In this document: piece after piece, positions 8,598 to 64,000 of the stretch
Position numbering within the stretch: position 1 is the stretch's first letter
Layout: every line of letters starts with the position of its first letter
Assembly: GCA_964351865.1 (NCBI GenBank)
Contig: CAYGPJ010000014.1
Span: forward strand, 35,556 to 99,555
Direction: 5' to 3'
Length of the DNA stretch: 64,000 nt
Source of the DNA: an uncultured Blastochloridaceae bacterium
Lineage (GTDB): Bacteria; Verrucomicrobiota; Verrucomicrobiia; Methylacidiphilales; JBCBYL01
Translations under genes and position numbers: made by a program
The notes under the pieces: model-generated
The model's database searches: none
What the model saw: the letters and a program-made list of their open reading frames with translations, nothing else
What the model was told of the DNA's origin: nothing

Positions 8598-8985
8598 GAG
8601 AGTTGCGTCCAAGTACTTGCCTCTAGAGCGTTTCCGAAATATGTTTTAACATGTAGGGCGAGATTGCATCTCGCCAACTTCCATCCCGGCAAGATGCAAG
8701 CTTTAGGCTGCGCCTAAACTAAACAAGTTAGAAAGTTATTTTGGTCGCGCTATCGCGCTGGGTTTTCTTGCCCTACATCTATTTTCCTCTGTTGATCGTG
8801 TGAGAACTTAATTCGGAAAAGCTCTAGTAGTTCGTTGCACGTCTAAAGACGGGTAGGGCGGTTTGTCTCAAACCGCTTTGGGATACGATACCAAATATGA
8901 TATAGAACCCGAAACGGAAACCAGCGCCTTGAGACAAGACGCCCTACCATACCCGTCATCCTATGCGCAACGAACTACTAGTACT
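8598..8985. repeat. Mosaic of non-coding hairpin repeats (families A, C, E)
   Basis: 8650-8675 'catgtagggcgagattgcatctcgcc' (also at 21578-21610). 8688-8779 is family C (also 40883-40998 rc and 63667-63794). 8822-8981 is a family A element: 17-bp terminal IR 'ctagtagttcgttgcac', enclosing a 20-bp inner IR 'ggtagggcg..ttgtctcaa / ttgagacaagacgccctacc'. Confidence 0.8.
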
Positions 8986-40834: not shown

Positions 40835-40998
40835 TAGTAGACCGTGCAACATGATATGACAGGAACTGTAGGCCGAGAAAACCCAGCGCGATAGCGCGGC
40901 CAAAAAAATAATTTCTAACTTGTTTAGTTTAGGCGTAGCCTAAAGCTTGCATCTCGGCTCCTTCTAAACTGTCGAGATGCAATCTCGACCTACATTTT
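40835..40998. repeat. Family B + family C repeat elements (reverse orientation)
   Basis: 'tagtagaccgtgcaacatgatatgacaggaactgtaggccgaga' followed by the reverse complement of family C 'gcaagctttaggc…cgcgctatcgcgctggg'. Confidence 0.8.
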
Positions 40999-48762: not shown

Positions 48763-49299
48763 CTAGGCGACGTAATTGGTGGCACCGTCAATATCGTCTG
48801 ATCTGGTGGATGGCACCGAGTCAATGGCACCGCCGTAGATCAGGTTCCCTGCAGGATCAATCACGAACATGTGCGGAGTGGTTTTGGCATCGTAAAGTCT
48901 TCCGACCGTGCCATCTTCGTCTAACAGCAACGCCGTGGCCTGGGTGCCGGTGGATTTGATTTTTTCATTCCAGTCGGCTGCGCTCATGTGACCTTGTTTG
49001 CCGGGGGCAGAGGAACAGATGGAGAGCCAGACCACGTCCTTGCCGGTATAGGCTTGCTGCCATTCCTGCATTTTGCCAGGACGGTAAAACTTTCCAACGA
49101 ATGGGCATCCGTGATTGACCCATTCCAGCACGACGTATTTACCTTTAAAGTCGGACAGGTTATGCGACGTGCCTTTGGTGTCTGTTAAAGTAAAGGCGGG
49201 GGCTGGTTTACCGATTTCAGGAGCAGCACTGACAGCACTCCACTGTGCGACAAATACAATCATCGCAATAATTAACGTGGTGAAGGGAATCGTTTTCAT
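48763..49299 (-). CDS. Secreted thioredoxin-fold (redoxin/GPx-like) protein
   Basis: Signal peptide; 'GKYVVLEWVNHGCPF' resembles the redoxin/glutathione-peroxidase active-site region. Confidence 0.6.
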   Translation of the reverse strand: MKTIPFTTLIIAMIVFVAQWSAVSAAPEIGKPAPAFTLTDTKGTSHNLSDFKGKYVVLEWVNHGCPFVGKFYRPGKMQEWQQAYTGKDVVWLSICSSAPGKQGHMSAADWNEKIKSTGTQATALLLDEDGTVGRLYDAKTTPHMFVIDPAGNLIYGGAIDSVPSTRSDDIDGATNYVA

Positions 49300-49354
49300 A
49301 CGGCAAACATTATACGAATGTTTCCTGCAGGCGCAAATGGGTGTGGGAAAAAAT

Positions 49355-49394
49355 GGGTAAGGATTGAGAATTAAGGATTAAGGATTAAGACTGG
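49355..49394 (+). repeat. Heptad direct repeats 'taaggat' in divergent promoter region (shares 15-mer with 7437-7479)
   Basis: 'gggtaaggattgagaattaaggattaaggattaagactgg'. Confidence 0.7.
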
Positions 49395-49584
49395 CTACGT
49401 CGACTCATTCGTGATTTTGAATCCATCATCCTTGATAGTTTCCGGAACAGACATCGAGCGAGTTCCTGAGTGATCACAGGATTCCCCATTGGTCCAGTTT
49501 GCAGAACCGCGCTGTCACACGATTGTAATAAAAGGATGCATGGTTTGGACTTTATTGTTTGGGTTGGTGGAGGCATAAAACCTC

Positions 49585-51168
49585 ATGCGTGTTGTAAATT
49601 TGTTAGTAGGAATGATGATGGTCGGCTTCCTGTTGTCCGGTTGTCAGCAGGTCGGGAAACGTCCGACGCTGACCATCATCTCAGGTTCGGAAAATAAATT
49701 ACTGGAACCGGTCGTGGCTGAATACGGGCGAGAGCATGGAGTGGATATACAGATGGTGTACAAAGGCTCGGTGGACATCATGCTGGAACTCAAGGACGGC
49801 AGCACCGGTTTTGATGCGGTCTGGCCTGCTAACAGCCTTTGGATTGAGCTTTCAGGGAACCGGAACGTCAGGCATGAGAAAAGTATTTTTCAGAGTCCGG
49901 TAGTGCTGGGAGTCAAGCGGTCCCGGGCGGAGGCCCTGGGGTTATTGGATCGGGCCAACGTCTCGCTGGCTGATTTGGTCGAATTGTCGCGGGCGGGTAA
50001 GCTGCCGTTTATCATGAGTAATCCTACCCAATCCAATTCGGGGGCGATGGGATATCTGGGGTTTCTGCACGGCGTGACGGGTAAAGACACACCATTTACT
50101 GCGGACGATTTAAATCGTCAGGAAACCGAGGTGGCGCTGAAGGCATTGCTGGGGGCGATCGCCCGGACCAGCGGATCCAGCGGGTGGCTTAAAGATCTCT
50201 ATCTCGAAAATGTGGCAGAGTATGATGCGATGATCAATTATGAGGCGTTGATCATTGAGGCAAATCTGTTGCTGGAGGCGCGAGGAGACGAGCCGCTGAT
50301 TTGTCTGTATCTGGCCGAAGGGCAACCCATCGCGGACAGCCCGCTCGGGTTTGTGAAGCATGCGGATGACGCAGATAACGCAAATAAGGAAGCGCTGTTT
50401 CTGGAGTTTCAGTCGTTTCTGCTGAGCCCTGATGTGCAGCAGCGGCTGGCTAAGCTGGGAAGACGCACAGGAGTCTTTGGGCATGGCTCGCTGGATGCCG
50501 ACGTGTTCCGCAAAGAATGGGGTATCGATCCGGAGCGGGTGTTGCAACCGGTGCCACTGCCGGGAGGGGAAGTGATTCAACAAGCCCTGCGGTTGTATCA
50601 GACGCGATTTAAAAAACCATCACTTACCGCTTTCGTGCTCGATTATTCCGGATCAATGAAAGATGAAGGAGAAAAAGAGTTGGAAGCCGCCATGACGGTG
50701 CTGCTGGATCCGGAACAAGCCGAGCGCTTTATGCTGCTGACCGGCGAGCGGGATATGACTTACGTGATTCCTTTCGATTCGGAGCCACGCGATGTGATCT
50801 TTCTGGAGGGAAATGATCCGAAAGGTATTCGTAAACTTCAGAGCCTGGTGCTTGAGCAGCGTGCGGAGGGAGGCACGAATATCTACCTGGCGGCGGAAAC
50901 GGCGATGAAGCGTATTCTGGCAACACCGGGGCGAGAACAATATCAGGTTTCCATTATTCTGATGACAGATGGGAAGAGTTCCGGATCGTTCAATGATTTT
51001 CAGCAGGCGTGGCAGAGCAATGGTGCGAAGATACCGGTGTTTTCGATTACTTTCGGGAATGCTGATGAGGAACAGTTAAAAACCATTGCGAATACCACCA
51101 ATGCCCGGGTCTTTTCGGGGCAGTCTGATTTGAGAAAAGCCTTTCGCAAAGCAAAGGGATATAATTGA
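49585..51168 (+). CDS. Lipoprotein with N-terminal periplasmic-binding-protein-like domain and C-terminal von Willebrand factor A domain
   Basis: Lipobox 'LLSGCQQ'; vWA MIDAS 'DYSGSM…TDG' ('VLDYSGSMKD', 'IILMTDGKSS'); N-terminal domain paralogous to 51760-52839. Confidence 0.7.
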   Translation: MRVVNLLVGMMMVGFLLSGCQQVGKRPTLTIISGSENKLLEPVVAEYGREHGVDIQMVYKGSVDIMLELKDGSTGFDAVWPANSLWIELSGNRNVRHEKSIFQSPVVLGVKRSRAEALGLLDRANVSLADLVELSRAGKLPFIMSNPTQSNSGAMGYLGFLHGVTGKDTPFTADDLNRQETEVALKALLGAIARTSGSSGWLKDLYLENVAEYDAMINYEALIIEANLLLEARGDEPLICLYLAEGQPIADSPLGFVKHADDADNANKEALFLEFQSFLLSPDVQQRLAKLGRRTGVFGHGSLDADVFRKEWGIDPERVLQPVPLPGGEVIQQALRLYQTRFKKPSLTAFVLDYSGSMKDEGEKELEAAMTVLLDPEQAERFMLLTGERDMTYVIPFDSEPRDVIFLEGNDPKGIRKLQSLVLEQRAEGGTNIYLAAETAMKRILATPGREQYQVSIILMTDGKSSGSFNDFQQAWQSNGAKIPVFSITFGNADEEQLKTIANTTNARVFSGQSDLRKAFRKAKGYN

Positions 51169-51755
51169 AGCTAACGCCTGACATAAAACGTGAACTGGTC
51201 GCGTCCGGTGTGGCCTCAGTCGGTGCGATTGGATTAGCCGTGTCGGGGTTGCCGCTGTTGATCGTGGGAGCGGGTGCCGTGGGTTGCTACATCGGGGTGC
51301 GGTCGATTATTCCTGCTCCTCAGACTGACGGTGAACGCTTGGAGGAATTGCGGCGGGAGGCTGCGCGTTACGAATCGCACATTAAAGAAAAGCTTCATCA
51401 TCTGATCAATCATCAGGCCACCCTGCCGGAGGCGGGCAGGAGTTCGATTGCTAAAATTGTGGAAACTTCCCGCTATATTCTGATCGATATAAAAGATCAT
51501 CCGCACAAGTTGCAAGAGGCACAGTTTTATTTAAATCATCATCTGGAGAGCACTGCGAAAATCCTCTCCAAATATCGTGAACTCGTCGCTAAAAAATCTG
51601 ATCGTGCTGCGAAATATGAGGTTCGGATATTAGAACTGCTGGAGCGGGTTGCCGTGAGCTTTGAAAATGGCAAGCGGTCGCTGCTGGATGAGGATGTCGT
51701 GACACTGGAATCAGAAATAGAAATTTTAGATACAACATTAGAACTGGAGTCGTGA
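51165..51755 (+). CDS. Membrane-anchored helical protein, XpaC (PF10112)-like (tentative)
   Basis: Two N-terminal TM helices followed by a helical domain; 4-bp start/stop overlap with the upstream gene. Confidence 0.35.
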   Translation: MKLTPDIKRELVASGVASVGAIGLAVSGLPLLIVGAGAVGCYIGVRSIIPAPQTDGERLEELRREAARYESHIKEKLHHLINHQATLPEAGRSSIAKIVETSRYILIDIKDHPHKLQEAQFYLNHHLESTAKILSKYRELVAKKSDRAAKYEVRILELLERVAVSFENGKRSLLDEDVVTLESEIEILDTTLELES

Positions 51756-51759
51756 ATTT

Positions 51760-52839
51760 ATGAAAGCACAACAAGTTATTGGAATCTTCGTGCTCCTGCT
51801 GACTTTGTCGGTCATCGGAGCGTATTACCTGTTTACGGGTAAAGCGGGCGGGAGTGGTGAGCTGTTATTGATTAAAGGTTACTGCGGCGGGGAGAAAATG
51901 CAGATGATTCGCAACCCAGAGGTCAGTAAAATATTAAAGAAACGCTACGGGATTGAGCTGGATGTCAGCAAGCGGGGGTCGGTGGAGATGGTGACGACCG
52001 AGCCACTGGAGGGGATTGATTTTGTCTGGCCCGGTTCACAGTCGCAATTGGCCTTATGGAAGGCTTCAGGGAAAAGGTATGAAAAAGCGGAGATTCTGTT
52101 TAACAGCCCGATCGTGCTCTATTCCTGGGACATCGTCAGCAAGGGGCTGGAAGGACAAGGAGTGGTAGAGGCTAAAGCGGGTGACACAGATTATGCGAAT
52201 ATGTCGTTACTACTGGAAAAGCTGGAGGCTAAAGAGAAGTGGAAAAACCTCGGTGTGGAGGCGCTTTCCGGACCAGTGCGGGTCGTTTTCACTAACCCGA
52301 ATAAATCAAATTCAGGCAATCAGTTTATGGGCTTATTGGCTACTGTCGCAAACGGTGAAGAAGCGCTCACCGGGCAGCCGTCCGAAAAAATACGAGCCAC
52401 CATGAAAGAAATTGTAGCTGGTTTAGGATACATGCATAGCTCAAGCGGGGATCTGTTCTCGCAATACCTGAGTCAGGGCGTCGGCGCATATCCGATGGTT
52501 GCCGGGTATGAATCGCAAATTATTGAGTTTTCCAGAAAAAACCCCGAGATGCTTAAAAATATTCTGGCGAAGCTGCGGATTATCTATCCGCGACCGACCG
52601 TTTGGTCGTCGCATCCGATGATCGCATTGACCGATCATGGGGAAAAATTACTGGAAGCTTTGCAGGATCCGGAAATTCAGCAGATTGCGTGGCGGGAGCA
52701 TGGATTCCGGCCGGGCAATGCAGCGGTCGGCATTACGATTGAAAATGCACCTATTCCAGGGATTCCCACATCGATCAATTCAATTGTGCCTATGCCGGCA
52801 CTGGATGCGATGCAGGTGCTGATGGAAGATGTGGAATAA
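51760..52839 (+). CDS. Membrane-anchored PBP-like domain protein (paralog of N-domain of 49585)
   Basis: N-terminal TM helix. Aligns with the upstream protein: 'IDFVWPGSQSQLALW' ~ 'FDAVWPANSLWIEL'; 'VFTNPNKSNSGNQFMGLLA' ~ 'IMSNPTQSNSGAMGYLGFL'. Confidence 0.55.
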   Translation: MKAQQVIGIFVLLLTLSVIGAYYLFTGKAGGSGELLLIKGYCGGEKMQMIRNPEVSKILKKRYGIELDVSKRGSVEMVTTEPLEGIDFVWPGSQSQLALWKASGKRYEKAEILFNSPIVLYSWDIVSKGLEGQGVVEAKAGDTDYANMSLLLEKLEAKEKWKNLGVEALSGPVRVVFTNPNKSNSGNQFMGLLATVANGEEALTGQPSEKIRATMKEIVAGLGYMHSSSGDLFSQYLSQGVGAYPMVAGYESQIIEFSRKNPEMLKNILAKLRIIYPRPTVWSSHPMIALTDHGEKLLEALQDPEIQQIAWREHGFRPGNAAVGITIENAPIPGIPTSINSIVPMPALDAMQVLMEDVE

Positions 52840-52934
52840 TGTTCAGTGAGGGGCTCGTGTCGTTACAAAAAAGGGGGCATATTATAAGTGCAAATTCGTT
52901 AGTGCTTGGATAGCTTTTTCATGGAGAGAATATT

Positions 52935-53564
52935 ATGGAAGCGATGATCACAGAATTTTTAAAGCCGGTTAATCTGGGATTGTCGGTTTTATTACTGGTT
53001 TTCATCTTATATTGGCTGATAACGATCATCGGGGGGTTGGATCTGGATTATTTTGATCTCGATATGGATTTCGGGGATGACGCGGATCTTGATGCGGACT
53101 CCGGGTTTTCATTTCTGAAGTATCTTGGCATTGGTGAGGCTCCCCTGATGGTGGTGCTGACCTGCCTAGTCATGTTTACCTGGGCCATGGCGTATATTAT
53201 ATTTGCTGTGTTGAACCTCTACTCGGTGCCGCTGCAACTGCTCATTCTGATTCCGATATTCATTGCCAGTTGTTTCATAACACATTACGTGGCAAAGCCT
53301 TTCGGCTACGTGTTCAACCTGTTAAACAAGTCCTCGGATAAGCCGGTAAAAATTATCGGGCAGGAATGCACCGTGACTACGGGAGAGGTAACCGAGAGCT
53401 TCGGGCAGGCTGAGATCGAACGGGATGGATCGTCGATCGTCATTCAGGCACGTAGTAAAAACGGAGAAATTTTTAATCGCGGTGATACCGCGCTGGTAGT
53501 GGAAGAAGACCGGGAAGCAGGGGTCTGGTATATTCGAAAAGTGAATGCTTCTAATTTAAACTAA
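52935..53564 (+). CDS. YqiJ/NfeD-like inner-membrane protein (OB-fold C-terminus)
   Basis: 209 aa; TM helices separated by an acidic 'DLDYFDLDMDFGDDADLDADSG' loop; C-terminal beta-rich OB-like domain; sits upstream of flotillin as in yqiJ-yqiK. Confidence 0.6.
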   Translation: MEAMITEFLKPVNLGLSVLLLVFILYWLITIIGGLDLDYFDLDMDFGDDADLDADSGFSFLKYLGIGEAPLMVVLTCLVMFTWAMAYIIFAVLNLYSVPLQLLILIPIFIASCFITHYVAKPFGYVFNLLNKSSDKPVKIIGQECTVTTGEVTESFGQAEIERDGSSIVIQARSKNGEIFNRGDTALVVEEDREAGVWYIRKVNASNLN

Positions 53565-53580
53565 AACAAAAGGAGAGAGT

Positions 53581-55602
53581 ATGTGGTTAGCTCAGGTATA
53601 TGGGAATAGTTCAAGTGCGGATCAGTTAGGAGTCTATCTGATGCCCATTATTGTGATTGTGGTCATTCTGGTCGCCGTCGTTTTCGGTACTCTGATAATG
53701 ATTGCTAAATTCTACAAAAAGGTAGATCAGGGGCGAGCATTGGTGCGGAATGGTCTTGGTGGCACCAAGGTGTCTTTCACAGGTATCGTGGTGTATCCGA
53801 TCATTCATCAGTGCGAATACATGGATATTTCGATCAAACGGGTGGAAATTCAGCGTGCTGGTTCAGAAGGGCTGATCTGTAAGGACAATATGCGGGCGGA
53901 TATTACGGTAGCTTTCTTCGTGCGTGTTAACTCCACTAAGGATGATGTATTGAAAGTCGCTCAGTCGGTCGGATGCGCTCGCGCGTCTGATGTGCAAAAG
54001 CTGCGCGAACTCTTCGATGCGAAATTCTCAGAAGGTCTCAAAACAGTCGGACGTCAGTTCGATTTTGTCGATCTCTATAATGCGCGCGGTCAGTTTAAGG
54101 ATGAAATCCTGAAAGTGATCGGAACGGACTTGAACGGCTATGTGTTGGACGATGCCGCCATCGATCATCTGGAACAGACCAAACTCGAATTCCTGAGTGC
54201 GAATAACATTCTCGATGCCTCCGGGATCAAGAAAATTACCGAACTCACGGCTAGAGAGAAGATTCTGGCAAATCAGATCGATCGCGATCGTGAAAAGACG
54301 GTGACCAAGCAGGATGTGGAAGCCGAGGAGGCGATTCTGGAACTGAACCGACAACTGGCAGAGTCCCAACAGAAACAGATTCGCGAAATCGCTACGGTGA
54401 CCGCACGAGAAAATGCGGAAACCGCGAAAGTCACGGAAGAGCAGCGACTGAAGTCTGAGCGTGCTCGCATAGCCGCAGATGAGGAAATTCAGACCTCTGA
54501 AGAGAACAAGAATCGCGCGGTGATCGTGGCGACTCGTAACAAGGAGCGGACGGATGCCGTCGAGCAGGAACGTATCCTGAAAGACCAGCAACTGGAAATG
54601 GTTGAACGCGAACGCATTGTTGAACTGGCTCAGATTGAGAAGCAGCGTGCGGTCGAGCAGGAGCAGAAAAACATTCAGGACGTTATCAAAGAACGTGTGA
54701 TGGTCGAGCGCCTGGTGGTTGAAGAAAAAGAACGCATCAAAGATACCGAAGCATTCGCGGGAGCGGATCGTAAGAAGCAAGTTGCGGTCACGGCGGCCAA
54801 GGAACTGGCGGAACAGGAACTGATCCAGAAAACCCAGCAGGCGGAAGCCGATAAGCAGTCGGCCGAATTGAAAGCACTGCAAGTAGTGATTGATGCGGAA
54901 GCTGCCGAGAAAGCGGCCATCAAAAATTCCAACGCCAAGAAGGTGATGGCTGAGGGGATCGCTGCCGAGCACGCTGCAACCGGCATGGCGGAAGTCTCCG
55001 TAAAAGAAGCAATGGCTGGTGCCGTTCAGAAAGAAGGCGAAGCGGAAGCCAATGTCATCCGTGTCAAAGCGGTGGCGGATGCAGAAGGGATTACCAAGAA
55101 AGCGGAAGCGATGAAACTCTTCGATACGGTCGGTAAAGATCACGAAGAATTCAAGCTGCGACTGGAACTGGAGAAAGACATCAAGCTGGCAGAACTGGAC
55201 ATGCACACGAAAGTGGCGGTCGAGCGGGCTGACATTGTGGGTGAAGCGCTCAAGAGTGCAAACATCGACATCATCGGCGGCGAAAGCACCTTCTTCGACA
55301 AGATTACCGGAGCCGTGGCTCAGGGCCGTGCCATTGACGGAATGGTCAATGAGAGTTCGGTGCTGACGGATGTCAGGGAAGCCTTGTTCGATACCGATGC
55401 TGAAGTGGTCAAAGCCAAGATTAAAAGCCTGACCGGACGTTTCGGGGTGGATACGAATGACATTAAGAATCTGAGTATCGCTGCGGTGCTTTCCTCGGCG
55501 ATCGCAAACACCGGAGACAGTTCCCTCAAGGGGGTCTTCAAGGATCTATTGGAATCGACCAGGAAGCTGGGGCTCGATTCCAAGAAATTCTCAGAGATCT
55601 AA
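53581..55602 (+). CDS. Flotillin-family SPFH/Band-7 protein (YqiK-like) with long coiled-coil
   Basis: N-terminal TM; SPFH domain 'ALVRNGLGGTKVSF…DISIKRVEIQ…DNMRADITVAFFVRV'; about 350-aa E/A/K-rich coiled-coil. Confidence 0.9.
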   Translation: MWLAQVYGNSSSADQLGVYLMPIIVIVVILVAVVFGTLIMIAKFYKKVDQGRALVRNGLGGTKVSFTGIVVYPIIHQCEYMDISIKRVEIQRAGSEGLICKDNMRADITVAFFVRVNSTKDDVLKVAQSVGCARASDVQKLRELFDAKFSEGLKTVGRQFDFVDLYNARGQFKDEILKVIGTDLNGYVLDDAAIDHLEQTKLEFLSANNILDASGIKKITELTAREKILANQIDRDREKTVTKQDVEAEEAILELNRQLAESQQKQIREIATVTARENAETAKVTEEQRLKSERARIAADEEIQTSEENKNRAVIVATRNKERTDAVEQERILKDQQLEMVERERIVELAQIEKQRAVEQEQKNIQDVIKERVMVERLVVEEKERIKDTEAFAGADRKKQVAVTAAKELAEQELIQKTQQAEADKQSAELKALQVVIDAEAAEKAAIKNSNAKKVMAEGIAAEHAATGMAEVSVKEAMAGAVQKEGEAEANVIRVKAVADAEGITKKAEAMKLFDTVGKDHEEFKLRLELEKDIKLAELDMHTKVAVERADIVGEALKSANIDIIGGESTFFDKITGAVAQGRAIDGMVNESSVLTDVREALFDTDAEVVKAKIKSLTGRFGVDTNDIKNLSIAAVLSSAIANTGDSSLKGVFKDLLESTRKLGLDSKKFSEI

Positions 55603-55699
55603 GGATTCTTTCGAATTGCCCTTCATACAGGAATCAGCGGCGTTTAGGCACGGTGTTGGTTTCTGGATGAGGTGGCAGCTTGATGAACCCATCTAAGCT

Positions 55700-58600
55700 A
55701 TGGCTGATAACGACTACAATGAGCTCAAAGAAGCACCCGCAGGCCCATCTGCCCCGGAGGCTGCCAATCCCCAAATGGAGGGAGGCGCTTATGAGATTAT
55801 TCGCAACCGCCTGCTGACGCAGGGCAAGGATCTGGCCGAACGGTTGGATAAGCTCAACAGTGCCCGCCGGGATATTTTCGGGGGGGTCGAACCCAAGCTG
55901 ATCGCTACCGACCGGATCACGACCCAGCACAATTGTGTGCCGCGTGACATGGTGGAAATCGGTGGCGACCGGTTCATCTTCGGTTACAACGTTCGACTGG
56001 GGCTCAAAACCGAGACTAATCTCTCGGATGTCTTCTCCATTTATCAGTATCAGGATGGAACCTTTCATGAAGAATCGCTGGATCAACTGATCCTCAATTC
56101 CGACTTCGAGGACGATTTCAAAAGTCTCTACAAGTATTATAAAGACACGCAGTTTGCGAAATTTCGGATCATCGGCCCGGCCTTGTACATGGTGTTTCGC
56201 ACGGGAAAAGCGGTCGATGACATCAAGACCTTCAAGTGGGCGATTACCGATGATGGTATTCAGTATGTAGGCAACCGGTTCGACCATGAATTCCATTTTC
56301 CGCCGCAGCACGAATTCGAGTGGGTGCGCACACATCGTGATCACCATCAAAGCGGCACTTATCCGCACATTTCGATTGAAGATCGGGTCTTTGTGGAAAC
56401 GTTGGATGGAGACCTGACTATCAAGGTTGAAAACAATACCGAGTCAGGAGAAGGCATTTACACCGAGCCGGTCGATAACAAAGACCAGACCCTGGATGAT
56501 GCGGAAGTCTATTACGCCTCGCTGGGGAATCTGATTCTGATTCGGGTTCGTCCTTTTCAGGAGCAAAAGTTTCGTTATTTTGTCTATAACGAAAAGTTAA
56601 AGCAGGTGCGACGGTTTGATCGCATTCATGATGCTTGTGTGCTGTTGCCCGACGAGCATGGCATCATTTTCCCGAACGGATATTATCTGCAGGGGGGAGC
56701 CTATAAGACGTTTGACCATGATGTGTCAGACATGATTTTTTCCCGGCGGATCGCTTCACCGAACGGGGAAGATTATCTCTACGTCTTCTACTCCCGGTTG
56801 GCCGGTATCTATCTGCTGCTTTCCTACAATATCATCGAGCAGCAGGTGCATACCCCGATTGTCTGTAACGGCTACAGCTTCTTTGATAACGGAGAACTGC
56901 TTTACTTTAAAGCCTCGGAGGAACCGCAGAAGGTGCACGCGATACAGATCTGGCAGACGCCATTTCGCAAGGAAGAAGACACCAGTGCGGTTGCCGAGGA
57001 TAAGGGGGCCATGCTGTTTAAGGTAGGTAATCGTGAAATCGTGCGCCTGATGGCAGACGCCAGAGAGGTCTCCAATCTCATTCAACGCGAAGATATTTAC
57101 GAAGACCTCTATCTGGAACTCTCGCGTGAAACGACGTCGATTTTAGATAGTTACTTCTGGTTGAAAGAACCGGCGGCGTTTCAGATAGACCAACCGATAG
57201 CGGCCATTAAAGAAGCAGCGACCGGTGCGATTGTAGAATTTGAAAAGGTTTCCCGTATTCGTAAAGATACGGAATCCCGCACTGCGGCGGCCCGTGAGAA
57301 AGTGAAGAAGCTTAGCTCGAGTGTGCATACCCAGAGCTATGAAAGTATTGATCCTTTTGTCGCCCACCTCTCAGCGATGCGTGGTTTGCGCGGCGAAGTG
57401 ATTTCACTCAAGGAGCTCCGCTACGCCAACGTGGCCGAGATCGAAGCATTGGAAGCCACCATCGTCGCAGAGACCGAAAAGCTTTCGCAGGGATGTGTGG
57501 AGTTTCTGTTGCAGGAAGATTCTCTGGCACCGTATCGCGAGGCGGTCGAGGATCAACAGTCTCGTATCGGCACAGGGGAAACCGCGGCCGCACTTTCTGC
57601 GCTGGAAGAGGAGATGGAGCAGTCGTCTTCAGAACTGCAGATGCTGATCGATATCGTCAGCAACCTCAAAATTGAGGACACCACGCATACCACGCAGATT
57701 ATTGACGATATCTCGGAAATCTATGCGCAACTGAATCAGGCGAAGGTGGCGCTGAAAAATCGACGTAAGAGTATTTCTTCGGTGGAGATGACGGCCCGCT
57801 TCGGAGCGGAGATGAAGTTGCTGAGTCAGTCGATTGTCAACTTTCTGGATCTCAGTGAAACCGTCGAACAGTGTGACGAGTATCTCACCAAGCTGATGGT
57901 GCAACTCGAAGAGTTGGAAGGGCGCTTCGCGGACTTTGAAAATTTTATCGCTGATCTGACTGAAAAACGGGAAGAGATTTACAACGCCTTTGAATCGAAA
58001 AAACTGGCGTTGATCGAATCGCGCAACAAGCGCTCCAATGCCCTGATGAGCACCGCGGAACGGATCCTGAGTGGAATCCGGAATCGGGTGTTGAAGATGA
58101 AATCGGTGGACGAGATCAACGGCTATCTGGCTGCCGATCTGATGGTCGAAAAAATCCGCGACATCATCCGGGAGTTAAGTGATTCCGACGACACGGTGAA
58201 AGTGGACGACCTGCAAAGCCGCTTGAAATCGATCCGTGAAGATGCAGTGCGGCAGTTGAAAGATCGGCAGGATTTGTTTGTTGAAGGTGAAAACATCATC
58301 AAATTCGGTCGACACCATTTTACAGTCAATACACAGGCGCTGGATCTGACGATTCTGAGGCGCGATGGTGGATTGCAGACGCATCTGACCGGCACGAACT
58401 ATTTCAGGAATATCGAAGATCCAAGAATTTTGGAATGTCGGGATATCTGGGATCAGGAAATTCTTTCGGAGAACGATGAGGTTTATCGGGCGGAGTATCT
58501 GGCTTACCTGTTCTGGAACGATGGAAATGCGGACATCCCGCAGGAAGTGGAAGCGTTGGAAGCAGCGCTGCAGAAGTTCATGGCACCCCGCTATGACGAA

Positions 58601-61102
58601 GGCTACATCAAGGGGGTGCACGACCATGATGCGGCGCGGATTCTGTTAGCCATTCACAGCATTCATGAGTCCATTGGTTTGCTGAGATACCGGCCTGCGG
58701 TGCGGGCGCTGGCGGGATACTTCTGGAGCACGCTGGATCAGGATGAAGCGCGGCATCAGCTCGCAAGAAAAGCTGCCAGCTTCGGGAAAATGCGGCACAC
58801 CTTTCACGCTGAGGGTAAACGACCTTCGGATGCAGGACACTATATCCGGGATTTGAGCCGGCAGTTGGCAAACTTCTGCCAATCATGCCAGTTGTTCAAT
58901 CACGACGACGTGGCTCCGGCCAGTGAATATCTGTTTGAGGCGCTGACGCAGGATCAACCGGCGTTTGCTATCAGCAGTCGGGCGCTGGATCTGGTTCAGG
59001 AATTTAAGCAGTCCCTCAAAGAGCGTGCGGCGGAGAAAGAATTTCAGCAGGCACTGGAATCGGTCGGAGATGCACCGGAAAGTAAGTCGCAACTGGCTGG
59101 CGACTGGATCGACGGGTTTTTGGGCTTTGCCGCGGATGACGATGGACAGCATCCGTTGGCTCGCTACGCGGATGAGGCGGCGTTGTTACTGGCCGGAATC
59201 CTTTCGGATCAGGCGGAGAAAAATATCACCGATCCGGAACAGAAACTGTCCGGATTGAAAGGATCGCACGAGCGGATTCACGAGGGAAGTTATGCCTTCG
59301 ACTACCATGATTTCTTTAGTCGCCTCAGTGCCTTCCGTGAAAAAACGGTGCCTGCGTTTACGACGTATCAAAAGCTGAAAAAAACCATCAACGAAGAAGA
59401 GCGGGAACGCTTACGGCTGGATGAATTCAAGCCGCGCGTGCTGACCTCCTTTGTGCGGAATAAGCTGATTGATAAAGTCTATCTGCCGCTGATCGGTGAT
59501 AATTTTGCCAAGCAGGTTGGTTCAGCGGGTGAAGGTAAGCGGACGGATCTGATGGGAATGTTGCTACTGATCTCGCCTCCCGGTTACGGGAAAACGACGC
59601 TGATGGAATACACTGCCAGCCGGTTGGGAATGATCTTCATGAAGATCAACGGGCCGGCAATCGGGCATCAGGTGACCTCGCTGGATCCGGGCGATGCGCC
59701 GAATATGAGTGCCCGCGAGGAAGTGAATAAACTGAACCTCGCGCTGGAGATGGGCGATAATGTGATGATTTATCTGGATGATATTCAGCACTGTAACCCT
59801 GAATTTCTGCAAAAGTTTATTTCACTCTGTGATGGCCAGCGAAAGATTGAAGGGGTTTTCAACGGGCGTCCGCGAACCTATGATCTGCGTGGACGTAAGG
59901 TCGCGGTGGTGATGGCAGGAAATCCGTACACGGAAAGCGGAGAAAAATTCCGTATCCCTGACATGCTGGCCAACCGTGCCGACACCTATAACCTGGGTGA
60001 TATTATCGGTGAAAATGCGGATGTGTTTAAATTGAGCTACATCGAAAACTCGATCACTTCGAATCCGGCGCTGAACCATCTGGCCAGTCGCGGCCAGAAA
60101 GACATTCACGGCTTGATCCGCATCGCCGAGACCGGCAGTCGGGAAGGGGTGGACATGGAAGCCAGTTACTCCATGGACGAAGTAAATGAAATGGTCGGAG
60201 TAGTGGAAAAGATGCTCAAGATTCGCGATGTCATCCTGGCGGTGAATCAGGCCTACATCAACTCCGCGGCGCAGGCAGACGCTTACCGCACCGAGCCGCC
60301 ATTTAAGCTGCAGGGTTCTTATCGGAATATGAATCGCCTGTCTGAAAAAGTGCGGGCGATCATGAATGACGATGAACTCACGCAAATGATCATTGATGAT
60401 TATACCAATGAAGCCCAAACGTTGACTGCAGGTGCGGAGGCGAATCTGCTGAAATTCCGTGAATTGATGGGATGGTTGACGCCTGAGGAGGCACAACGGT
60501 GGGACGATATCAAAGCGTCCTTCCAGCGCAATCAGTTGTTGCACAGCACCGACGGAGACGATCCGGTGGCACGCGTGGTCGGGCAGTTGTCCGCATTACA
60601 GGCAGGACTTCAGGCCATAGCAGCCGGATTAAAAGACGGAACCGAACATTCCGGACTGCAACAGATACAACTGACCTCGGAAACCTGGGATGAACTCAAA
60701 GCACTGGTGGCAGGGACTCATCCTTCACCGATGCCGCAAACCATATCCGCGGTTGCTCCACCTGCGGGAGAAATGGAGAGCCTCGCGTCACAAGATGACA
60801 TTGCGACTGCCGGGGATGGCGCTGCCGGAAGTTACGAACCCTATAAGGTGGATGTGGTCTACCGCTTTCCGGAAGATTTTTCAGCGCTGTTACAGGAGCA
60901 GATGAAAATTGTGCAAAGCCTGATTGAACCCACCACGAAAGTGGCACGGGACGAGCGTAAGGAATTGCGCAAAACGTTGAAGGACATTCAGGTGGTGCTC
61001 GGTGAGTATCATCACTACCTTGACGAGTTGCAGGGCAAAGCGGTGATCCGTGAAGAAGATGCAGTAGCTACGAGAGCGGAAAAGAAAACAAAGAAAGCGT
61101 AG
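55700..61102 (+). CDS. Giant (1,800-aa) multidomain protein with MoxR/AAA_5-type ATPase core
   Basis: Walker A 'LLISPPGYGKTTL' (about nt 59565-59600); Walker B 'VMIYLDDIQH'; 'VAVVMAGNP…ANRADTYNL' sensor region typical of AAA_5. About 450-aa N-terminal domain without recognisable motifs; central about 400-aa helical/coiled-coil segment. Confidence 0.7.
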   Translation: MADNDYNELKEAPAGPSAPEAANPQMEGGAYEIIRNRLLTQGKDLAERLDKLNSARRDIFGGVEPKLIATDRITTQHNCVPRDMVEIGGDRFIFGYNVRLGLKTETNLSDVFSIYQYQDGTFHEESLDQLILNSDFEDDFKSLYKYYKDTQFAKFRIIGPALYMVFRTGKAVDDIKTFKWAITDDGIQYVGNRFDHEFHFPPQHEFEWVRTHRDHHQSGTYPHISIEDRVFVETLDGDLTIKVENNTESGEGIYTEPVDNKDQTLDDAEVYYASLGNLILIRVRPFQEQKFRYFVYNEKLKQVRRFDRIHDACVLLPDEHGIIFPNGYYLQGGAYKTFDHDVSDMIFSRRIASPNGEDYLYVFYSRLAGIYLLLSYNIIEQQVHTPIVCNGYSFFDNGELLYFKASEEPQKVHAIQIWQTPFRKEEDTSAVAEDKGAMLFKVGNREIVRLMADAREVSNLIQREDIYEDLYLELSRETTSILDSYFWLKEPAAFQIDQPIAAIKEAATGAIVEFEKVSRIRKDTESRTAAAREKVKKLSSSVHTQSYESIDPFVAHLSAMRGLRGEVISLKELRYANVAEIEALEATIVAETEKLSQGCVEFLLQEDSLAPYREAVEDQQSRIGTGETAAALSALEEEMEQSSSELQMLIDIVSNLKIEDTTHTTQIIDDISEIYAQLNQAKVALKNRRKSISSVEMTARFGAEMKLLSQSIVNFLDLSETVEQCDEYLTKLMVQLEELEGRFADFENFIADLTEKREEIYNAFESKKLALIESRNKRSNALMSTAERILSGIRNRVLKMKSVDEINGYLAADLMVEKIRDIIRELSDSDDTVKVDDLQSRLKSIREDAVRQLKDRQDLFVEGENIIKFGRHHFTVNTQALDLTILRRDGGLQTHLTGTNYFRNIEDPRILECRDIWDQEILSENDEVYRAEYLAYLFWNDGNADIPQEVEALEAALQKFMAPRYDEGYIKGVHDHDAARILLAIHSIHESIGLLRYRPAVRALAGYFWSTLDQDEARHQLARKAASFGKMRHTFHAEGKRPSDAGHYIRDLSRQLANFCQSCQLFNHDDVAPASEYLFEALTQDQPAFAISSRALDLVQEFKQSLKERAAEKEFQQALESVGDAPESKSQLAGDWIDGFLGFAADDDGQHPLARYADEAALLLAGILSDQAEKNITDPEQKLSGLKGSHERIHEGSYAFDYHDFFSRLSAFREKTVPAFTTYQKLKKTINEEERERLRLDEFKPRVLTSFVRNKLIDKVYLPLIGDNFAKQVGSAGEGKRTDLMGMLLLISPPGYGKTTLMEYTASRLGMIFMKINGPAIGHQVTSLDPGDAPNMSAREEVNKLNLALEMGDNVMIYLDDIQHCNPEFLQKFISLCDGQRKIEGVFNGRPRTYDLRGRKVAVVMAGNPYTESGEKFRIPDMLANRADTYNLGDIIGENADVFKLSYIENSITSNPALNHLASRGQKDIHGLIRIAETGSREGVDMEASYSMDEVNEMVGVVEKMLKIRDVILAVNQAYINSAAQADAYRTEPPFKLQGSYRNMNRLSEKVRAIMNDDELTQMIIDDYTNEAQTLTAGAEANLLKFRELMGWLTPEEAQRWDDIKASFQRNQLLHSTDGDDPVARVVGQLSALQAGLQAIAAGLKDGTEHSGLQQIQLTSETWDELKALVAGTHPSPMPQTISAVAPPAGEMESLASQDDIATAGDGAAGSYEPYKVDVVYRFPEDFSALLQEQMKIVQSLIEPTTKVARDERKELRKTLKDIQVVLGEYHHYLDELQGKAVIREEDAVATRAEKKTKKA

Positions 61103-61170
61103 CGGTCGAATTCCCTTCTCACTCGACATCAGTAGGGAATCCGCTAACACAGAATCAGGAACGAACGACT

Positions 61171-61923
61171 ATGTTAAAGCGACTATCAAATCTCATCAAA
61201 GGCTTTATGGGCCTGTTCATCAGCGGTATGGAAAAAAGCAATCCGGAGGCATTGCTGGAAGTGGAAAAAGAGAATCTGCGTCAGCAGATATCCAAATACA
61301 ACCAGGGACTGGCGGCTCATGCCGGCATGTGTGAACGCCTGATGAGTCAGGTCAAAAAGCTGGAAGAAGAAGAAAGCCAGTTGACTGGAAAAGCCAAAGC
61401 CCACCTGCGGGCCGGCAATCAGGATGCCGCTGGCCAATACGCGCTGCGCTTACAGACGATTAAACGCGAGCTGATGGAAAACCGCAGCCAGCTGGAATCC
61501 GCTGAACACACTTATCAGGAACTGGTGAAGGCGCGGGACGTGTCGATTCGTTCCGCAAAAGATAAAATTGCATCGCTCAAGAGCAGCATCAGTGAAATGA
61601 GAATGAAAACCGCAGAAGCCGAGCTGACGGAAATGGCTGCGGGGATGATTACCGACATCGGTGGTTCCGGCGATACCTTGAATCGCCTGCAGGAAATGGT
61701 GGAAGAAGAGAAACAACTGGCTGCCGGTAAAGCGCGGGTGGCTAAAGATTCACTGAATACAGATGAAATTGAAATTCAGGAAATTGAACAAAAAGCGCTG
61801 GCGGATCAGGCTTTAGCGGATTTTGCCGCCAGCGAAGGATTAACCCTGGATACCGGATCAGAACCAGCTCCGGCCGAAGACGCCACGGGTGAATCCAAAT
61901 CCATGGGGCCTCAAACCCAGTAA
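61171..61923 (+). CDS. pspA: PspA/IM30/Vipp1-family protein (ESCRT-III superfamily)
   Basis: 250 aa; long amphipathic helices; N-terminal 'MLKRLSNLIKGFMGLFISGMEKSNPEALLE' matches the PspA pattern. Confidence 0.85.
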   Translation: MLKRLSNLIKGFMGLFISGMEKSNPEALLEVEKENLRQQISKYNQGLAAHAGMCERLMSQVKKLEEEESQLTGKAKAHLRAGNQDAAGQYALRLQTIKRELMENRSQLESAEHTYQELVKARDVSIRSAKDKIASLKSSISEMRMKTAEAELTEMAAGMITDIGGSGDTLNRLQEMVEEEKQLAAGKARVAKDSLNTDEIEIQEIEQKALADQALADFAASEGLTLDTGSEPAPAEDATGESKSMGPQTQ

Positions 61924-61975
61924 CAGCATTCAGTGATCGCAGGCCAAAACCGATCACACCTTCAGGGGAATCCTT

Positions 61976-63655
61976 ATGAAGAAGGTTGACTCCTCAGTTC
62001 CCGCTTGGACGCAAGAAATTGCGACCTTGTATGAGAGCGGGGCATACAATCAGTTTATCCTGCACGGTAACCTGAATGATTCTTTCCTGGTCTCCGATCC
62101 GGGCGGGCAGAAACTTGGCGACATCTATTCGCTGATCAATCGCCAATTACTCAGCGGATTCGATGTCGTTCTGACTTACGATTTGGGGCGTGGCATATTA
62201 GCTGAGAAAGGTCGCGAAGCTTTTTCTCAATGGCCTTCACACGACGCAGAAAATTTGCAGACACGTAAACCCAGGGACGCCGTGGTCACCCTGACCCATT
62301 ACTTCCGGTATGTCGCCAATCTGAGAAATATCAGCGGATCATCCAAAGCGCCCAAAGTTGCCGCATTGATCAAAGGAGCCGAGTGGATGGCTCCCGCGGT
62401 CCAGAGCGGACTCAATTACGAACTCAATGCGACCGCATTGATGATGAAGGAATGGAGTCAGGACCCGTTACTGCTTTCGCATCATCTCGCCACGTTTCTG
62501 TTTTCGGAAAACATGAATGATTTGCACCCCTTACTGGCTAATAATCCGCGGGCGGCACGGGTTAAGGTTGATCTGCCGGATGCCGCACAGTGGAAGCGCT
62601 TTTTCTCTTTCGCGGCCGCATCATTTAAGGAAACCCTGCCCGAGACGGACGGAACAAGTTGGCAAGGCAGCGATCAATTTCTAGGGGCCAGCTGTCATGC
62701 GGTCTGGCAGTTATTGCAGCGACGGGCTTATGAAAAAGAACCGCTGAAAATTAGTGATGCCGTCAGCCTGAAAAAATCACTGGTAGAAAAAGAGTGCCAG
62801 GGGTTGATTGAATTTACCGAGTCGGATCGGACACTCGATGATATTGCGGGCCAGGAGGCGATTAAAAATCTGCTGCGACAGGATATCGCCTTGTTGCATC
62901 AGGGGGACACCAAGGCATTGCCGATGGGGTATTTGCTGTGCGGTCCGGTGGGAACCGGAAAAACGTATTTCGTGGAATGTCTGGCTGGTGAGGCCGGCAT
63001 TCCGGTGGTGACTATTAAAAATTTCCGCGATAAGTGGGTGGGGTCGAGTGAAGGGAATCTCGAGAAAATTTTCCGCCTGCTGCATGCGCTGGAACGCTGT
63101 TTTGTCTTCATCGATGAGGCCGACCAATCCCTTGGGAAACGCGACAGTGGTAGCAGCGATTCCGGATTGTCCGGTCGAATCTATTCCATGTTCGCCAAAG
63201 AGATGAGTCAGGTGCGAAATCGCGGTAAAATCATTTGGCTGTTGGCTTCGAGCCGGCCGGACCTGATTGAGGTGGATCTGAAGCGCCCGGGTCGGGTAGA
63301 TGTGAAAATACCGTTATTGCCCGCGCATACCCCCGCGGGAGTGGCTGGATTATTATATGCGCTTTGCCGTAAACAGGGGATCGAGCTGTCCGAAGCACAG
63401 ATCCTGGAGCATCAGGAAATCTTGCCGGAGTGGCTGACGCCAGGCAGTGCAGAAGCTTTAGCCGTCAAACTCTATCGGAACATTAAAGCCGACGGGTTAA
63501 ATCCGTTGGAAGCCTTATCCTCTGCTTTAAATGGTTACCAGAACCCGGTGCCGCGCGATGTGATGGAGTTTCAGATCGATCTCGCCGTCAGGGAATCGTC
63601 GGACATGAGTTTCGTGCCCGAGGCCTTTCAAAAGCCGCAAAGTCAGAGCGTTTAA
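61976..63655 (+). CDS. Classic-clade AAA+ ATPase (FtsH/Vps4/CDC48-type single AAA cassette) with novel about 300-aa N-terminal domain
   Basis: Walker A 'CGPVGTGKT', Walker B 'VFIDEAD', SRH 'SSRPDLIEVDLKRPGRVD'. Confidence 0.85.
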   Translation: MKKVDSSVPAWTQEIATLYESGAYNQFILHGNLNDSFLVSDPGGQKLGDIYSLINRQLLSGFDVVLTYDLGRGILAEKGREAFSQWPSHDAENLQTRKPRDAVVTLTHYFRYVANLRNISGSSKAPKVAALIKGAEWMAPAVQSGLNYELNATALMMKEWSQDPLLLSHHLATFLFSENMNDLHPLLANNPRAARVKVDLPDAAQWKRFFSFAAASFKETLPETDGTSWQGSDQFLGASCHAVWQLLQRRAYEKEPLKISDAVSLKKSLVEKECQGLIEFTESDRTLDDIAGQEAIKNLLRQDIALLHQGDTKALPMGYLLCGPVGTGKTYFVECLAGEAGIPVVTIKNFRDKWVGSSEGNLEKIFRLLHALERCFVFIDEADQSLGKRDSGSSDSGLSGRIYSMFAKEMSQVRNRGKIIWLLASSRPDLIEVDLKRPGRVDVKIPLLPAHTPAGVAGLLYALCRKQGIELSEAQILEHQEILPEWLTPGSAEALAVKLYRNIKADGLNPLEALSSALNGYQNPVPRDVMEFQIDLAVRESSDMSFVPEAFQKPQSQSV

Positions 63656-63666
63656 TCGGGGACTCT

Positions 63667-63968
63667 AGGGCAAGATAGCATCTTGCCGGAATGATCATTG
63701 GCGAGATGCAAGCTTTAGGCTACGCCTAAACTAAACGAGTTAGAAATCATTGGTATTCTCCGCGCTATCGCGCTGGGTTTTCTCGCCCTACATGACCATC
63801 TCCTGTTGGCGAAACATGTTGAGCGAATCGTATGATAGCTGACGCATCCAATAGATGAAGCGCCGCAACTCCGAAAGGATTCGCGAGAGATCTCCGATAA
63901 AATCGCGAGTCTGCGAAATGCTGCATCGACTTACCAAAGCGCTGAACGCTAGGGGACGGAGTAATTTT
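63667..63968. repeat. Family C (63667-63794) and inverted family D (63850-63968) repeat elements
   Basis: 'ggcaagatagcatcttgcc…gcgagatgcaagctttaggctacgcctaaactaaacgagttagaaa…cgcgctatcgcgctgggttttctcgccctacat'; 'tccgataaaatcgcgagtctgcg…cgctgaacgctaggggacggagtaa' is the reverse complement of 21360-21440. Confidence 0.8.
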
Positions 63969-64000
63969 TTCCTACCATCCCGTTTTCAAAAGGCCAATAC

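Follow-up and report, generated by a model that had tools for sequence, protein, structure and literature searches.

Why does one bacterial genome place a solute-binding von Willebrand factor A (vWA) protein, a flotillin, a giant ATPase, a PspA homologue and a second AAA ATPase in a single run of genes, and do these genes encode one machine? The question is raised by an array of eight genes at positions 49585-63655 of a 64,000-nucleotide stretch of DNA (the window, which below always means this whole stretch) from an uncultured Blastochloridaceae bacterium of the Verrucomicrobiota (assembly GCA_964351865.1, contig CAYGPJ010000014.1, positions 35,556 to 99,555). An initial annotation, made from the letters and their open reading frames without database searches, had proposed a novel membrane-remodelling apparatus. 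The explanation that we favor, with a probability of roughly 60%, is that three membrane-stress modules, each conserved on its own, have been joined head to tail in the array, with a PspA-AAA pair in the place of TelA; we infer that the function is most likely co-regulated envelope-stress sensing, turnover of PspA polymers and remodelling of flotillin microdomains.

The eight reading frames, all on the + strand, lie exactly where the initial annotation had placed them, and are assigned here to modules M1 to M3:

g1, 49585-51168, + strand, 527 amino acids (aa), M1: SBP_bac_11 domain (aa 32-292) fused to a VWA domain (aa 349-514), both by Pfam
g2, 51165-51755, + strand, 196 aa, M1: XpaC/Halogen_Hydrol-family protein with a transmembrane (TM) hairpin at its N-terminus
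g3, 51760-52839, + strand, 359 aa, M1: SBP_bac_11 protein with an N-terminal membrane anchor
g4, 52935-53564, + strand, 209 aa, M2: YqiJ/YuaF-type NfeD-like membrane protein, weak YqiJ_N match
g5, 53581-55602, + strand, 673 aa, M2: flotillin-family protein (SPFH2, YqiK-like), no Pfam match
g6, 55700-61102, + strand, 1800 aa, M2: DUF3686, DUF7902 and one AAA+ module
g7, 61171-61923, + strand, 250 aa, M3: PspA/IM30 (ESCRT-III superfamily), PF04012
g8, 61976-63655, + strand, 559 aa, M3: classical AAA ATPase of two tandem domains, D1 degenerate and D2 intact

Conservation of the eight genes

A strong association within the sub-blocks is evident from two censuses of gene neighbourhoods, each comprising the best-scoring 80 loci of more than 540-568 matches. 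The census anchored on g6 covers 80 species-representative genome loci plus Symmachiella, 81 in all, and was searched with all eight window proteins; the census anchored on g8 covers 80 metagenome loci that come for the most part from soil and are not independent in phylogeny. In the g6 census, g5 lies directly upstream of g6 on the same strand in 71 of the 81 loci; where g5 is complete (64 loci), the gene immediately before it is a g4 homologue in 55. Of the 42 loci in the g8 census whose upstream sequence is 1.8 kb or longer, 38 have an orthologue of g7 (50-67% identity) next to g8. The YqiJ-flotillin and PspA-AAA pairings that the initial annotation had picked out are both strongly co-conserved.

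The association does not extend to the whole array. None of g1, g2 and g3 is found in any of the 81 g6-anchored loci; g8 is found in none either, save for one weak generic AAA match about 6 kb downstream of g6 (L052), and g7 is found in a single locus (L025, from a member of the Verrucomicrobiota), at 50% identity and on the opposite, convergent strand. Likewise g4, g5 and g6 are present in 0 of the 80 g8-anchored loci. The sub-blocks cluster far more than chance would allow, which the eight genes as a set do not, and the expectation of a co-conserved eight-gene set fails the neighbourhood comparison that the initial annotation had itself put forward as its check.

The PspA-AAA pair

The product of g7 matches PF04012 (PspA_IM30) over aa 2-220 with 32.2 bits (E 1e-7), just below the cutoff of 33.9; an orthologue at 62% identity scores 40.6 bits against the same family, and precomputed PF04012 matches exist also for L168 and for L082, a Logan contig identical to this locus. 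A profile search of the PDB with g7 returned nothing. The N-terminus of the g7 family is conserved as MFxRLxNLIRGFFGLF (alignment A5), compatible with an amphipathic membrane-binding helix. At the C-terminus the same alignment reveals a conserved EQKALADQALADFAA-EG, followed by a linker and then by K[ST]MGP. This C-terminal motif, EQKALADQALADFAAKEGI (window 61780-61923), is strongly conserved in the g8-linked PspA family and is degenerate in the PspA of L025 (15151-15900), the only member of the g7 family examined that has no adjacent g8; the conserved C-terminus of g7 is a candidate AAA-docking tail.

The partner ATPase, g8, consists of two domains. D1 (aa 1-270) is AAA-like in fold, with FILHGNLND in place of a P-loop, and D2 carries a Walker A motif (CGPVGTGKT), a pore loop (KWVG), a Walker B motif (FIDEAD) and a second region of homology, RPDLIEVDLKRPGRVD. 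Invariant in an alignment of the g8 family (A2) are FILHGN-x-D in D1 and GPVGTGKT, KWVG, FIDEAD and RPGRVD in D2. The closest PDB matches by phmmer are the D2 domains of VAT, Cdc48 and AFG2 (E ~1e-34), and Foldseek aligns an AlphaFold2 model of g8 (pLDDT 76) over roughly 580-630 columns (578-633) to D1-D2 ATPases at E ~1e-14, the partners being 7z11, p97, Pex1/6, Rix7 and NVL; g8 has no Cdc48-type N domain. The family is large, with more than 7600 matches at about 55% identity.

The neighbours of the pair follow a limited number of patterns. For the loci with at least 4.8 kb of upstream sequence, 19 out of 29 have the order PBP-vWA lipoprotein, anchored PBP, PspA, X, AAA (type I), where PBP denotes a periplasmic binding protein, and 8 out of 29 have PspA-AAA alone; the type I operons are flanked by unrelated genes. 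Variants have X and a PBP-OmpA protein downstream, or additional ABC transporter genes. Protein X is about 273 aa long and comprises a hairpin of two TM segments (2TM) and a coiled coil, with no Pfam family (for example L097, 9135-9956); it lies between PspA and AAA in 27 of the 42 loci, and downstream of the ATPase in others. BLAST detects no similarity between X and g2; hhalign gives a probability of 83% over 85 columns, mostly TM. The PspA-linked PBP-vWA and PBP genes are only 22-28% identical to g1 and g3, so that their connection with PspA-AAA is one of paralogy, not orthology. We found no description of a vWA link to PspA-AAA in the literature searched, and the term 'vWA' has 0 occurrences in the text and supplement of the comparative genomic study by Ravi et al. 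(2024; PMC11237479).

The PBP-vWA, XpaC and PBP genes

The translation of g1 carries a lipobox (LLSGC), and the protein is for this reason taken to be exported; the metal-ion-dependent adhesion site of its vWA domain is intact (DYSGS). The paralogues of g1 in PspA-AAA operons all have both a lipobox and DxSGS, and g3 shares the anchor motif GAYYLF with its own paralogues in those operons. Since the lipobox is common to g1 and all of its paralogues, and the N-terminal anchor to the relatives of g3, the vWA and PBP domains are extracytoplasmic. The two PBP-like domains recognized in the initial annotation are indeed paralogous, g3 and the N-terminal half of g1 being 24% identical; the SBP_bac_11 score of g3 is 30.7 bits. 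Between them lies g2, left unnamed at that stage, which is an XpaC/Halogen_Hydrol-family 2TM protein: a Halogen_Hydrol domain (PF10112; E 4.7e-13, 50 bits vs a cutoff of 29.8) follows the hairpin, and this helical C-terminal domain is probably cytoplasmic. A word-based homologue search found nothing beyond g2 itself; a full HMMER search found 238 distant relatives in the XpaC family, the best at 32% identity.

The contexts of these relatives place M1 within a larger operon. On three independent contigs the order is SBP_bac_11+VWA, Halogen_Hydrol, a PBP of 367-383 aa, and TelA; over 500 aa, g1 shares 52% identity with the first gene of this operon, and over 331 aa g3 shares 52% with the third, with TelA directly after the g3 orthologue in all three full contexts (3/3). 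In total, the contexts examined for M1 were three complete contigs, two partial contigs and two annotated plasmid loci, the last from Variovorax and Sphaerotilus, where apparently the same four genes occur in permuted order. TelA is absent from the 64-kb window (tblastn with two TelA queries, best E 0.22), and the slot after g3 that is normally TelA's accordingly holds M2 and then M3. We read M1 as the part of a four-gene operon that senses or anchors; TelA, its usual cytoplasmic partner, is missing here. No description of the four-gene operon was found in a literature search that did not cover the 2012 paper of Anantharaman et al. on the Ter system.

On the Variovorax plasmid (L173; Variovorax sp. 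SRS16 plasmid 2, NZ_LR594667.1), the distance from the TelA/PBP-vWA cluster is about 2 kb to a divergent pair encoding an OB-fold (YqiJ-like) protein and a flotillin, and about 3 kb to Wadjet (JetA) genes. Here, independently of the array, a flotillin again lies close to a PBP-vWA module. We also considered TelA as a cryptic ESCRT-III protein, an idea that was dropped, there being no homology to PspA or X (probabilities of 1.3% and 0.2%).

The YqiJ, flotillin and DUF3686 ATPase cassette

The g4 protein has N-terminal TM segments and a C-terminal OB-like domain. Its own match to YqiJ_N is weak (E 0.004); YqiJ_N is matched by 8 of 16 members of its family and NfeD by 2 of the 16, and comparison with the YuaF structure 2k14 gives E 0.38 in the expected region.

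In g5, the next protein, a TM segment at the N-terminus is combined with a divergent SPFH domain and a long coiled coil rich in Glu and Ala. We identify it as a flotillin because of its tblastn matches to annotated flotillins: 29.5% identity over aa 39-431 to a 'flotillin family protein' on an E. coli plasmid (E 2e-34) and, for a Streptomyces 'flotillin family protein', 45% identity across 93% of g5 (E 2e-130). Its matches to FloT and QmcA are weak. The E. coli plasmid YqiK-like flotillins follow a YqiJ-like gene for an 'OB-fold-containing protein', and the Streptomyces flotillin gene, also on a plasmid, is itself followed by a 'DNA repair ATPase' gene, so that the M2 cassette is present there too. 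The identity of g5 did not emerge from other routes: Pfam has no match for g5 or for 14 relatives, profile searches of the PDB gave a coiled-coil-only match to QmcA or nothing, and the single-sequence AlphaFold2 model (pLDDT 48) is unusable for fold assignment. The family as a whole is nearly invisible to Pfam, with Band_7 matched by 1 of 16 members and Flot by 0, a gap in profile coverage.

The giant ATPase g6 is cytoplasmic and is defined by DUF3686 (aa 44-486, E 1e-185) and DUF7902 (aa 607-691), followed by a coiled-coil or helical region and an AAA+ module at about aa 1280-1560 with Walker A GYGKTT and Walker B YLDD. The DUF3686 region is a beta-propeller according to Ravi et al. (2024; PMC11237479). 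When the ATPase module is searched in isolation, AAA (E 2.8e-6) and AAA_5 (E 1.2e-5) score about equally; Pfam gives no AAA_3 or AAA_lid_2 match for the module, and no solved relative was found. More than 4190 homologues are about 50% identical over the full length, from which an 18-sequence alignment (A1) was made. A full-text literature search for DUF3686 gave no match. PGAP and Pfam label this family 'DNA repair ATPase' or 'ATPase involved in DNA repair', a name that looks like an annotation artefact, since neither the domain content nor the invariable flotillin/NfeD neighbourhood points to DNA repair.

The M2 cassette is near-universal across at least seven phyla, its loci coming from Planctomycetota, Verrucomicrobiota, Bacteroidota, Desulfobacterota, Clostridia, Kiritimatiellota and Omnitrophota. 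The nearest relatives of g6 (54-55% identity) lie in plain three-gene cassettes amid unrelated genes. In six loci (L015, L017, L022, L051, L060 and L081) the g5 and g6 homologues are 0.7-2.4 kb apart, and four of these six gaps gave Pfam matches, namely to DMP19-like proteins, an AbiEii toxin, an esterase and small membrane proteins, which are unrelated. The possibility that the intervening genes encode PspA or CesT was rejected, their contents being miscellaneous, and the g5-g6 junction appears to be a tolerated insertion site.

Layout of the array and its flanks

The eight genes form one co-directional block that is probably co-transcribed. The successive gaps from g1 to g8 are -4, 4, 95, 16, 97, 68 and 52 nt, in keeping with the one or two transcription units suggested in the initial annotation, and the repeats that it noted at the two ends are both real. 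Three non-coding features accompany the genes:

49300-49584, no strand: divergent spacer between an AhpC/TSA gene and g1, holding the heptad repeat
55603-55699, + strand: g5-g6 spacer with an RNA hairpin, from folding against shuffles
63702-63793, no strand: dispersed intergenic repeat of 91 bp, found by blastn, which marks the downstream end of the array

The upstream spacer separates g1 from the diverging AhpC/TSA gene (48763-49299, - strand) and contains about 4.5 copies of a TAAGGAT-like heptad (TAAGGAT / TGAGAAT) at 49357-49392. The 91-bp repeat is REP- or MITE-like (akin to repetitive extragenic palindromes or miniature inverted-repeat transposable elements); blastn places further copies at 40867-40956 (91%, in reverse complement) and at 8692-8778 (87%), and the region at 63702-63793 folds better than its shuffles (z = -2.9). 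The hairpin in the 97-nt g5-g6 spacer is very stable, with a minimum free energy of -43 kcal/mol (z = -5.4, equalled by 0 of 200 shuffles) and no trailing U-tract; a possible role is in processing or attenuation, by which the ratio of flotillin to ATPase expression would be set. An Rfam scan of 49000-64000 gave no match, the hairpin included.

The spacers g3-g4, g6-g7 and g7-g8 have no stable fold (z within about 0.5 of the shuffles), terminator-like sites over the whole array are at chance level in number, and so are the sites found by a promoter scan, also in the divergent spacer; one such promoter-like site, at 52907-52936, lies just 5' of g4. No direct repeats were found at the edges of the M2 block. 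The upstream neighbours are housekeeping genes, encoding AhpC/TSA, a cyclic-nucleotide (cNMP)-binding protein, GH10, PFOR, DHODH and a genuine FtsH (AAA plus Peptidase_M41), the last at 35944-38019 on the - strand, 24 kb upstream of g8.

Discussion

If the three modules act together, the array might operate as follows. Detection of a ligand or of the state of the envelope would fall to the two solute-binding domains in the periplasm and to the vWA domain, and the XpaC-like hairpin protein would relay or anchor this signal at the inner face of the membrane. PspA would polymerize on the stressed membrane via its N-terminal amphipathic helix, and a g8 hexamer would thread the conserved tail at the C-terminus of PspA through the KWVG pore, such that the polymer is disassembled and recycled; g8 would in this respect be a functional analogue of Vps4 acting on ESCRT-III, not an orthologue of Vps4. 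The co-transcribed flotillin/NfeD cage, remodelled by the giant ATPase, would supply the membrane microdomain.

We favor a functional link over an accident because M2 fills the slot between sensor and effector genes, because pairwise linkages among these families recur in other lineages, and because there are experimental precedents. For the linkages, M2 is joined elsewhere to another PspA family (Ravi et al. 2024, PMC11237479), and a g7-family PspA adjoins M2 in L025; the paralogous PBP-vWA/PBP genes beside PspA-AAA and the flotillin pair near the Variovorax TelA/PBP-vWA cluster are further cases. For the precedents, the B. subtilis SPFH protein YdjI is needed to localize PspA, as cited in PMC10936438 and PMC9239133, and the xpaC-telA genes of E. 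faecium are a studied daptomycin-response cluster, in which XpaC together with TelA controls phospholipid microdomain distribution and daptomycin binding (PMC6811118).

Several observations weigh against the fusion of three modules as a functional unit. The fusion is seen in this genome and the identical Logan contig only, and none of about 160 census loci repeats it; the full fusion is a single instance, so that any selection for it is conjectural. The censuses, being made of best-scoring loci, under-sample rarer architectures. The PBP-vWA/PBP genes that go with PspA-AAA elsewhere are, at the 22-28% identity noted above, paralogues and not orthologues of g1 and g3, and TelA, whose place PspA-AAA would have taken, has no detectable homology to PspA or X. 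Protein X, the usual companion of PspA-AAA, was sought throughout the window and not found.

The most serious competitor is that three independent operons came to stand in tandem after a rearrangement, with no functional coupling, which we consider unlikely. It would account for the autonomy of each module elsewhere and for a fusion unique among about 170 loci, for the variable, unrelated genes that M2 tolerates inside it in other genomes, and for the promoter-like site just 5' of g4, though such sites are no more numerous than chance. What it leaves as coincidence is that M2 stands exactly in the slot of M1's fourth gene (TelA) or of M3's sensor genes, on the same strand and with spacers of only 95 and 68 nt, and that independent pairwise links of PspA, flotillin, XpaC/TelA and PBP-vWA recur in other lineages. 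At the opposite extreme, one obligate machine of all eight components, with a giant MoxR-type ATPase served by the vWA protein, would suit a co-directional run of membrane-related products with gaps of -4 to 97 nt and no convincing terminator between genes; we judge it highly improbable, given that g1-g3 and a true g8 are absent from all 81 g6 loci and g4-g6 from all 80 g8 loci, that g1 is a lipoprotein across the membrane from g6, and that the g6 ATPase is not demonstrably MoxR-type.

Two other functions can be set beside these. An anti-phage or conflict system, in which large ATPases and membrane effectors bring about abortive infection or exclusion, is brought to mind by weak IetA matches for g8 (E 5e-9), by the AbiEii and DMP19-like cargo between g5 and g6 in some loci, by the Wadjet genes some 3 kb from the Variovorax copy of M1, and by the proposal of the Aravind group that TelA and vWA proteins form sub-membrane barriers to phage and xenobiotics (PMC7824862). 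PADLOC, however, returns matches to generic AAA or coiled-coil proteins only and no system model, the neighbours in the window are housekeeping genes (AhpC, PFOR, DHODH, FtsH), and the conservation of M2 and M3 at about 50% identity across phyla is atypical of fast-turnover defence genes, so that such a system seems less probable still than the single machine. We give the lowest probability of all to solute uptake, with two solute-binding proteins feeding a transporter and the other genes incidental: SBP_bac_11 domains are typical receptors of ABC transport, and some g8 relatives do occur with an ABC permease, an ATPase and a PBP-OmpA protein (also in the supplement of Ravi et al., PMC11237479), but neither a permease nor an ABC ATPase is present in the array or in the type I and TelA-type operons, and sensing or tethering better fits a pair of PBPs of which one is fused to vWA and the other is membrane-anchored.

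A bolder form of the three-module fusion can be stated, which we regard as speculative and doubtful. Here the PBP-vWA/PBP pairs with a 2TM adaptor would be a general trans-envelope input device that drives interchangeable effectors, either TelA or PspA with a Cdc48-like disassembly ATPase, the latter combination being the true bacterial counterpart of ESCRT-III/Vps4; the window would then hold a hybrid in which PspA-AAA replaces TelA and is wired to a flotillin cage and giant ATPase, a two-ATPase apparatus for membrane repair or vesiculation.

Returning to the fusion of three conserved modules as such, the array is an unusual combination, not a new kind of machine, since the three modules are separately conserved and two of them have already been described by comparative genomics. 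The coherent membrane and envelope-stress theme of the initial annotation holds, and its idea of a novel remodelling apparatus survives to that extent, but not as a single novel eight-gene system. Its statement that no characterized system matches is right for experimentally characterized ones and wrong in that M2 and M3 are described by Ravi et al. (2024; PMC11237479). Its assignment of g6 to the MoxR-type/AAA_5 ATPases is ambiguous, AAA and AAA_5 scoring equally in a family defined by DUF3686 and DUF7902; its reading of the vWA protein as the usual MoxR partner fails, because the vWA domain is periplasmic, g6 being cytoplasmic, and because the modules that accompany g1 are those of TelA or PspA, and g6 is never among its neighbours elsewhere. 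In g8, called a Vps4/FtsH-type classical AAA, the classical AAA part is borne out and the Vps4/FtsH part is not, given a degenerate D1 and closest matches in the D2 of Cdc48/VAT/AFG2.

Within the literature searched, three things appear to be new: the PBP-vWA/PBP/X set of companions of PspA-AAA; the PBP-vWA/XpaC/PBP/TelA operon, the 2012 Ter-system paper lying outside the search; and the three-module fusion with PspA-AAA where TelA normally stands, of which no description was found. Reviews hold that bacteria have no Vps4-like ATPase for the disassembly of PspA/Vipp1 polymers. The g7-g8 pair is a concrete and testable candidate: g7 and g8 are neighbours in about 90% of loci, the threading pore is intact, and the tail motif is degenerate in the one g7-family PspA examined that has no g8 beside it (L025). 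More broadly, these results connect, in a network open to testing, four membrane-stress families of which little is understood: TelA/XpaC, flotillin/NfeD, the DUF3686 ATPase and PspA.

Comparison with known systems

Of the classical Psp system, no PspB, PspC or sigma-54 activator (PspF) is found among the eight products, and the neighbours encode AhpC and a cNMP-binding protein. FtsH requires N-terminal TM segments and a C-terminal M41 peptidase, and g8 has no Peptidase_M41 match; nor is g8 the FtsH of this cell, since a canonical FtsH is encoded at 35944-38019. MoxR-vWA pairs (RavA-ViaA, Bat/BatA-like, DUF58 triads) likewise combine an AAA+ ATPase with a vWA protein, but the vWA domain of the array is on an exported lipoprotein and never occurs with g6, for which Pfam gives no AAA_3 or AAA_lid_2 match. 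A genuine MoxR-DUF58 pair is present in L168. The B. subtilis PspA-YdjGHI locus, like the array, holds PspA and an SPFH-family protein together, although the SPFH subfamily of the array is different (flotillin/YqiK-like, with an NfeD partner and a giant ATPase) and there are no YdjG or YdjH homologues.

The pairing of an ESCRT-III-superfamily gene with a classical-clade AAA ATPase that has an aromatic pore loop is shared with the ESCRT-III and Vps4 of archaea and eukaryotes (CdvB/CdvC), and the C-terminal tail motif of PspA could act like a MIM (the MIT-interacting motif). With Vps4/CdvC, g8 has in common its position beside an ESCRT-III-family gene and intact Walker A and B motifs, pore loop and arginine fingers. 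Vps4/CdvC, however, has an N-terminal MIT domain and a single meiotic-clade AAA cassette, whereas g8 has no MIT domain and its N-terminal 270 aa are modelled as D1-like; CdvC matches g8 only at E 3.9e-10, and the D2 of Cdc48/VAT/AFG2 is the better match. With the type II tandem D1-D2 ATPases (Cdc48/p97/AFG2-like) g8 shares two stacked AAA folds, its D1 differing by the missing P-loop. We regard g8 as a Vps4 analogue at best; Vps4-like ATPases appear to be absent in bacteria according to reviews (PMC7619361, PMC10936438).

Two counterparts come from Ravi et al. (2024, mSystems, PMC11237479). They describe a widespread bacterial operon of YqiJ/YuaF, Band-7+coiled-coil+flotillin, and beta-propeller+coiled-coil+AAA (Dokdonia donghaensis ANH61663.1), which g4-g5-g6 reproduce in order and architecture, g6 fitting the Betapropeller+Coiled-coil+AAA-ATPase of the supplement. 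The extended form of that operon joins a CesT/Tir-PspA (YjfJ-type) dyad; the array instead has a different PspA family with its own AAA ATPase, and its cassette is additionally flanked by the PBP-vWA/XpaC/PBP trio. They also describe PspA with an 'Inactive-Classical-AAA+Classical-AAA' partner (AEY64321.1, OGG56892.1), and g7-g8 are alike in placing PspA beside a two-domain AAA ATPase whose first domain is dead. PBP-OmpA and ABC transporter genes are seen with g8 relatives in both studies, whereas the companions that are commonest here (PBP-vWA lipoprotein, anchored PBP and X; 19/29 loci) are not mentioned there. Within M2, g4-g5 also have the two hallmarks of the NfeD-SPFH2 pairs (YqiJ-YqiK / YuaF-FloT), a flotillin-family protein and an NfeD/YqiJ-like gene immediately upstream, a gene pairing documented as NfeD2-SPFH2 (PMC2636767). 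Finally, g2 belongs to the same family as the XpaC of the xpaC-telA clusters (yaaN-xpaC in B. subtilis; the cluster of E. faecium), and its orthologues are operonic with TelA. The window differs in having no TelA, and the Gram-negative-type operon differs in adding two periplasmic solute-binding proteins, one of them vWA-fused; the envelope and phospholipid-microdomain phenotype of xpaC-telA fits the theme of the array.

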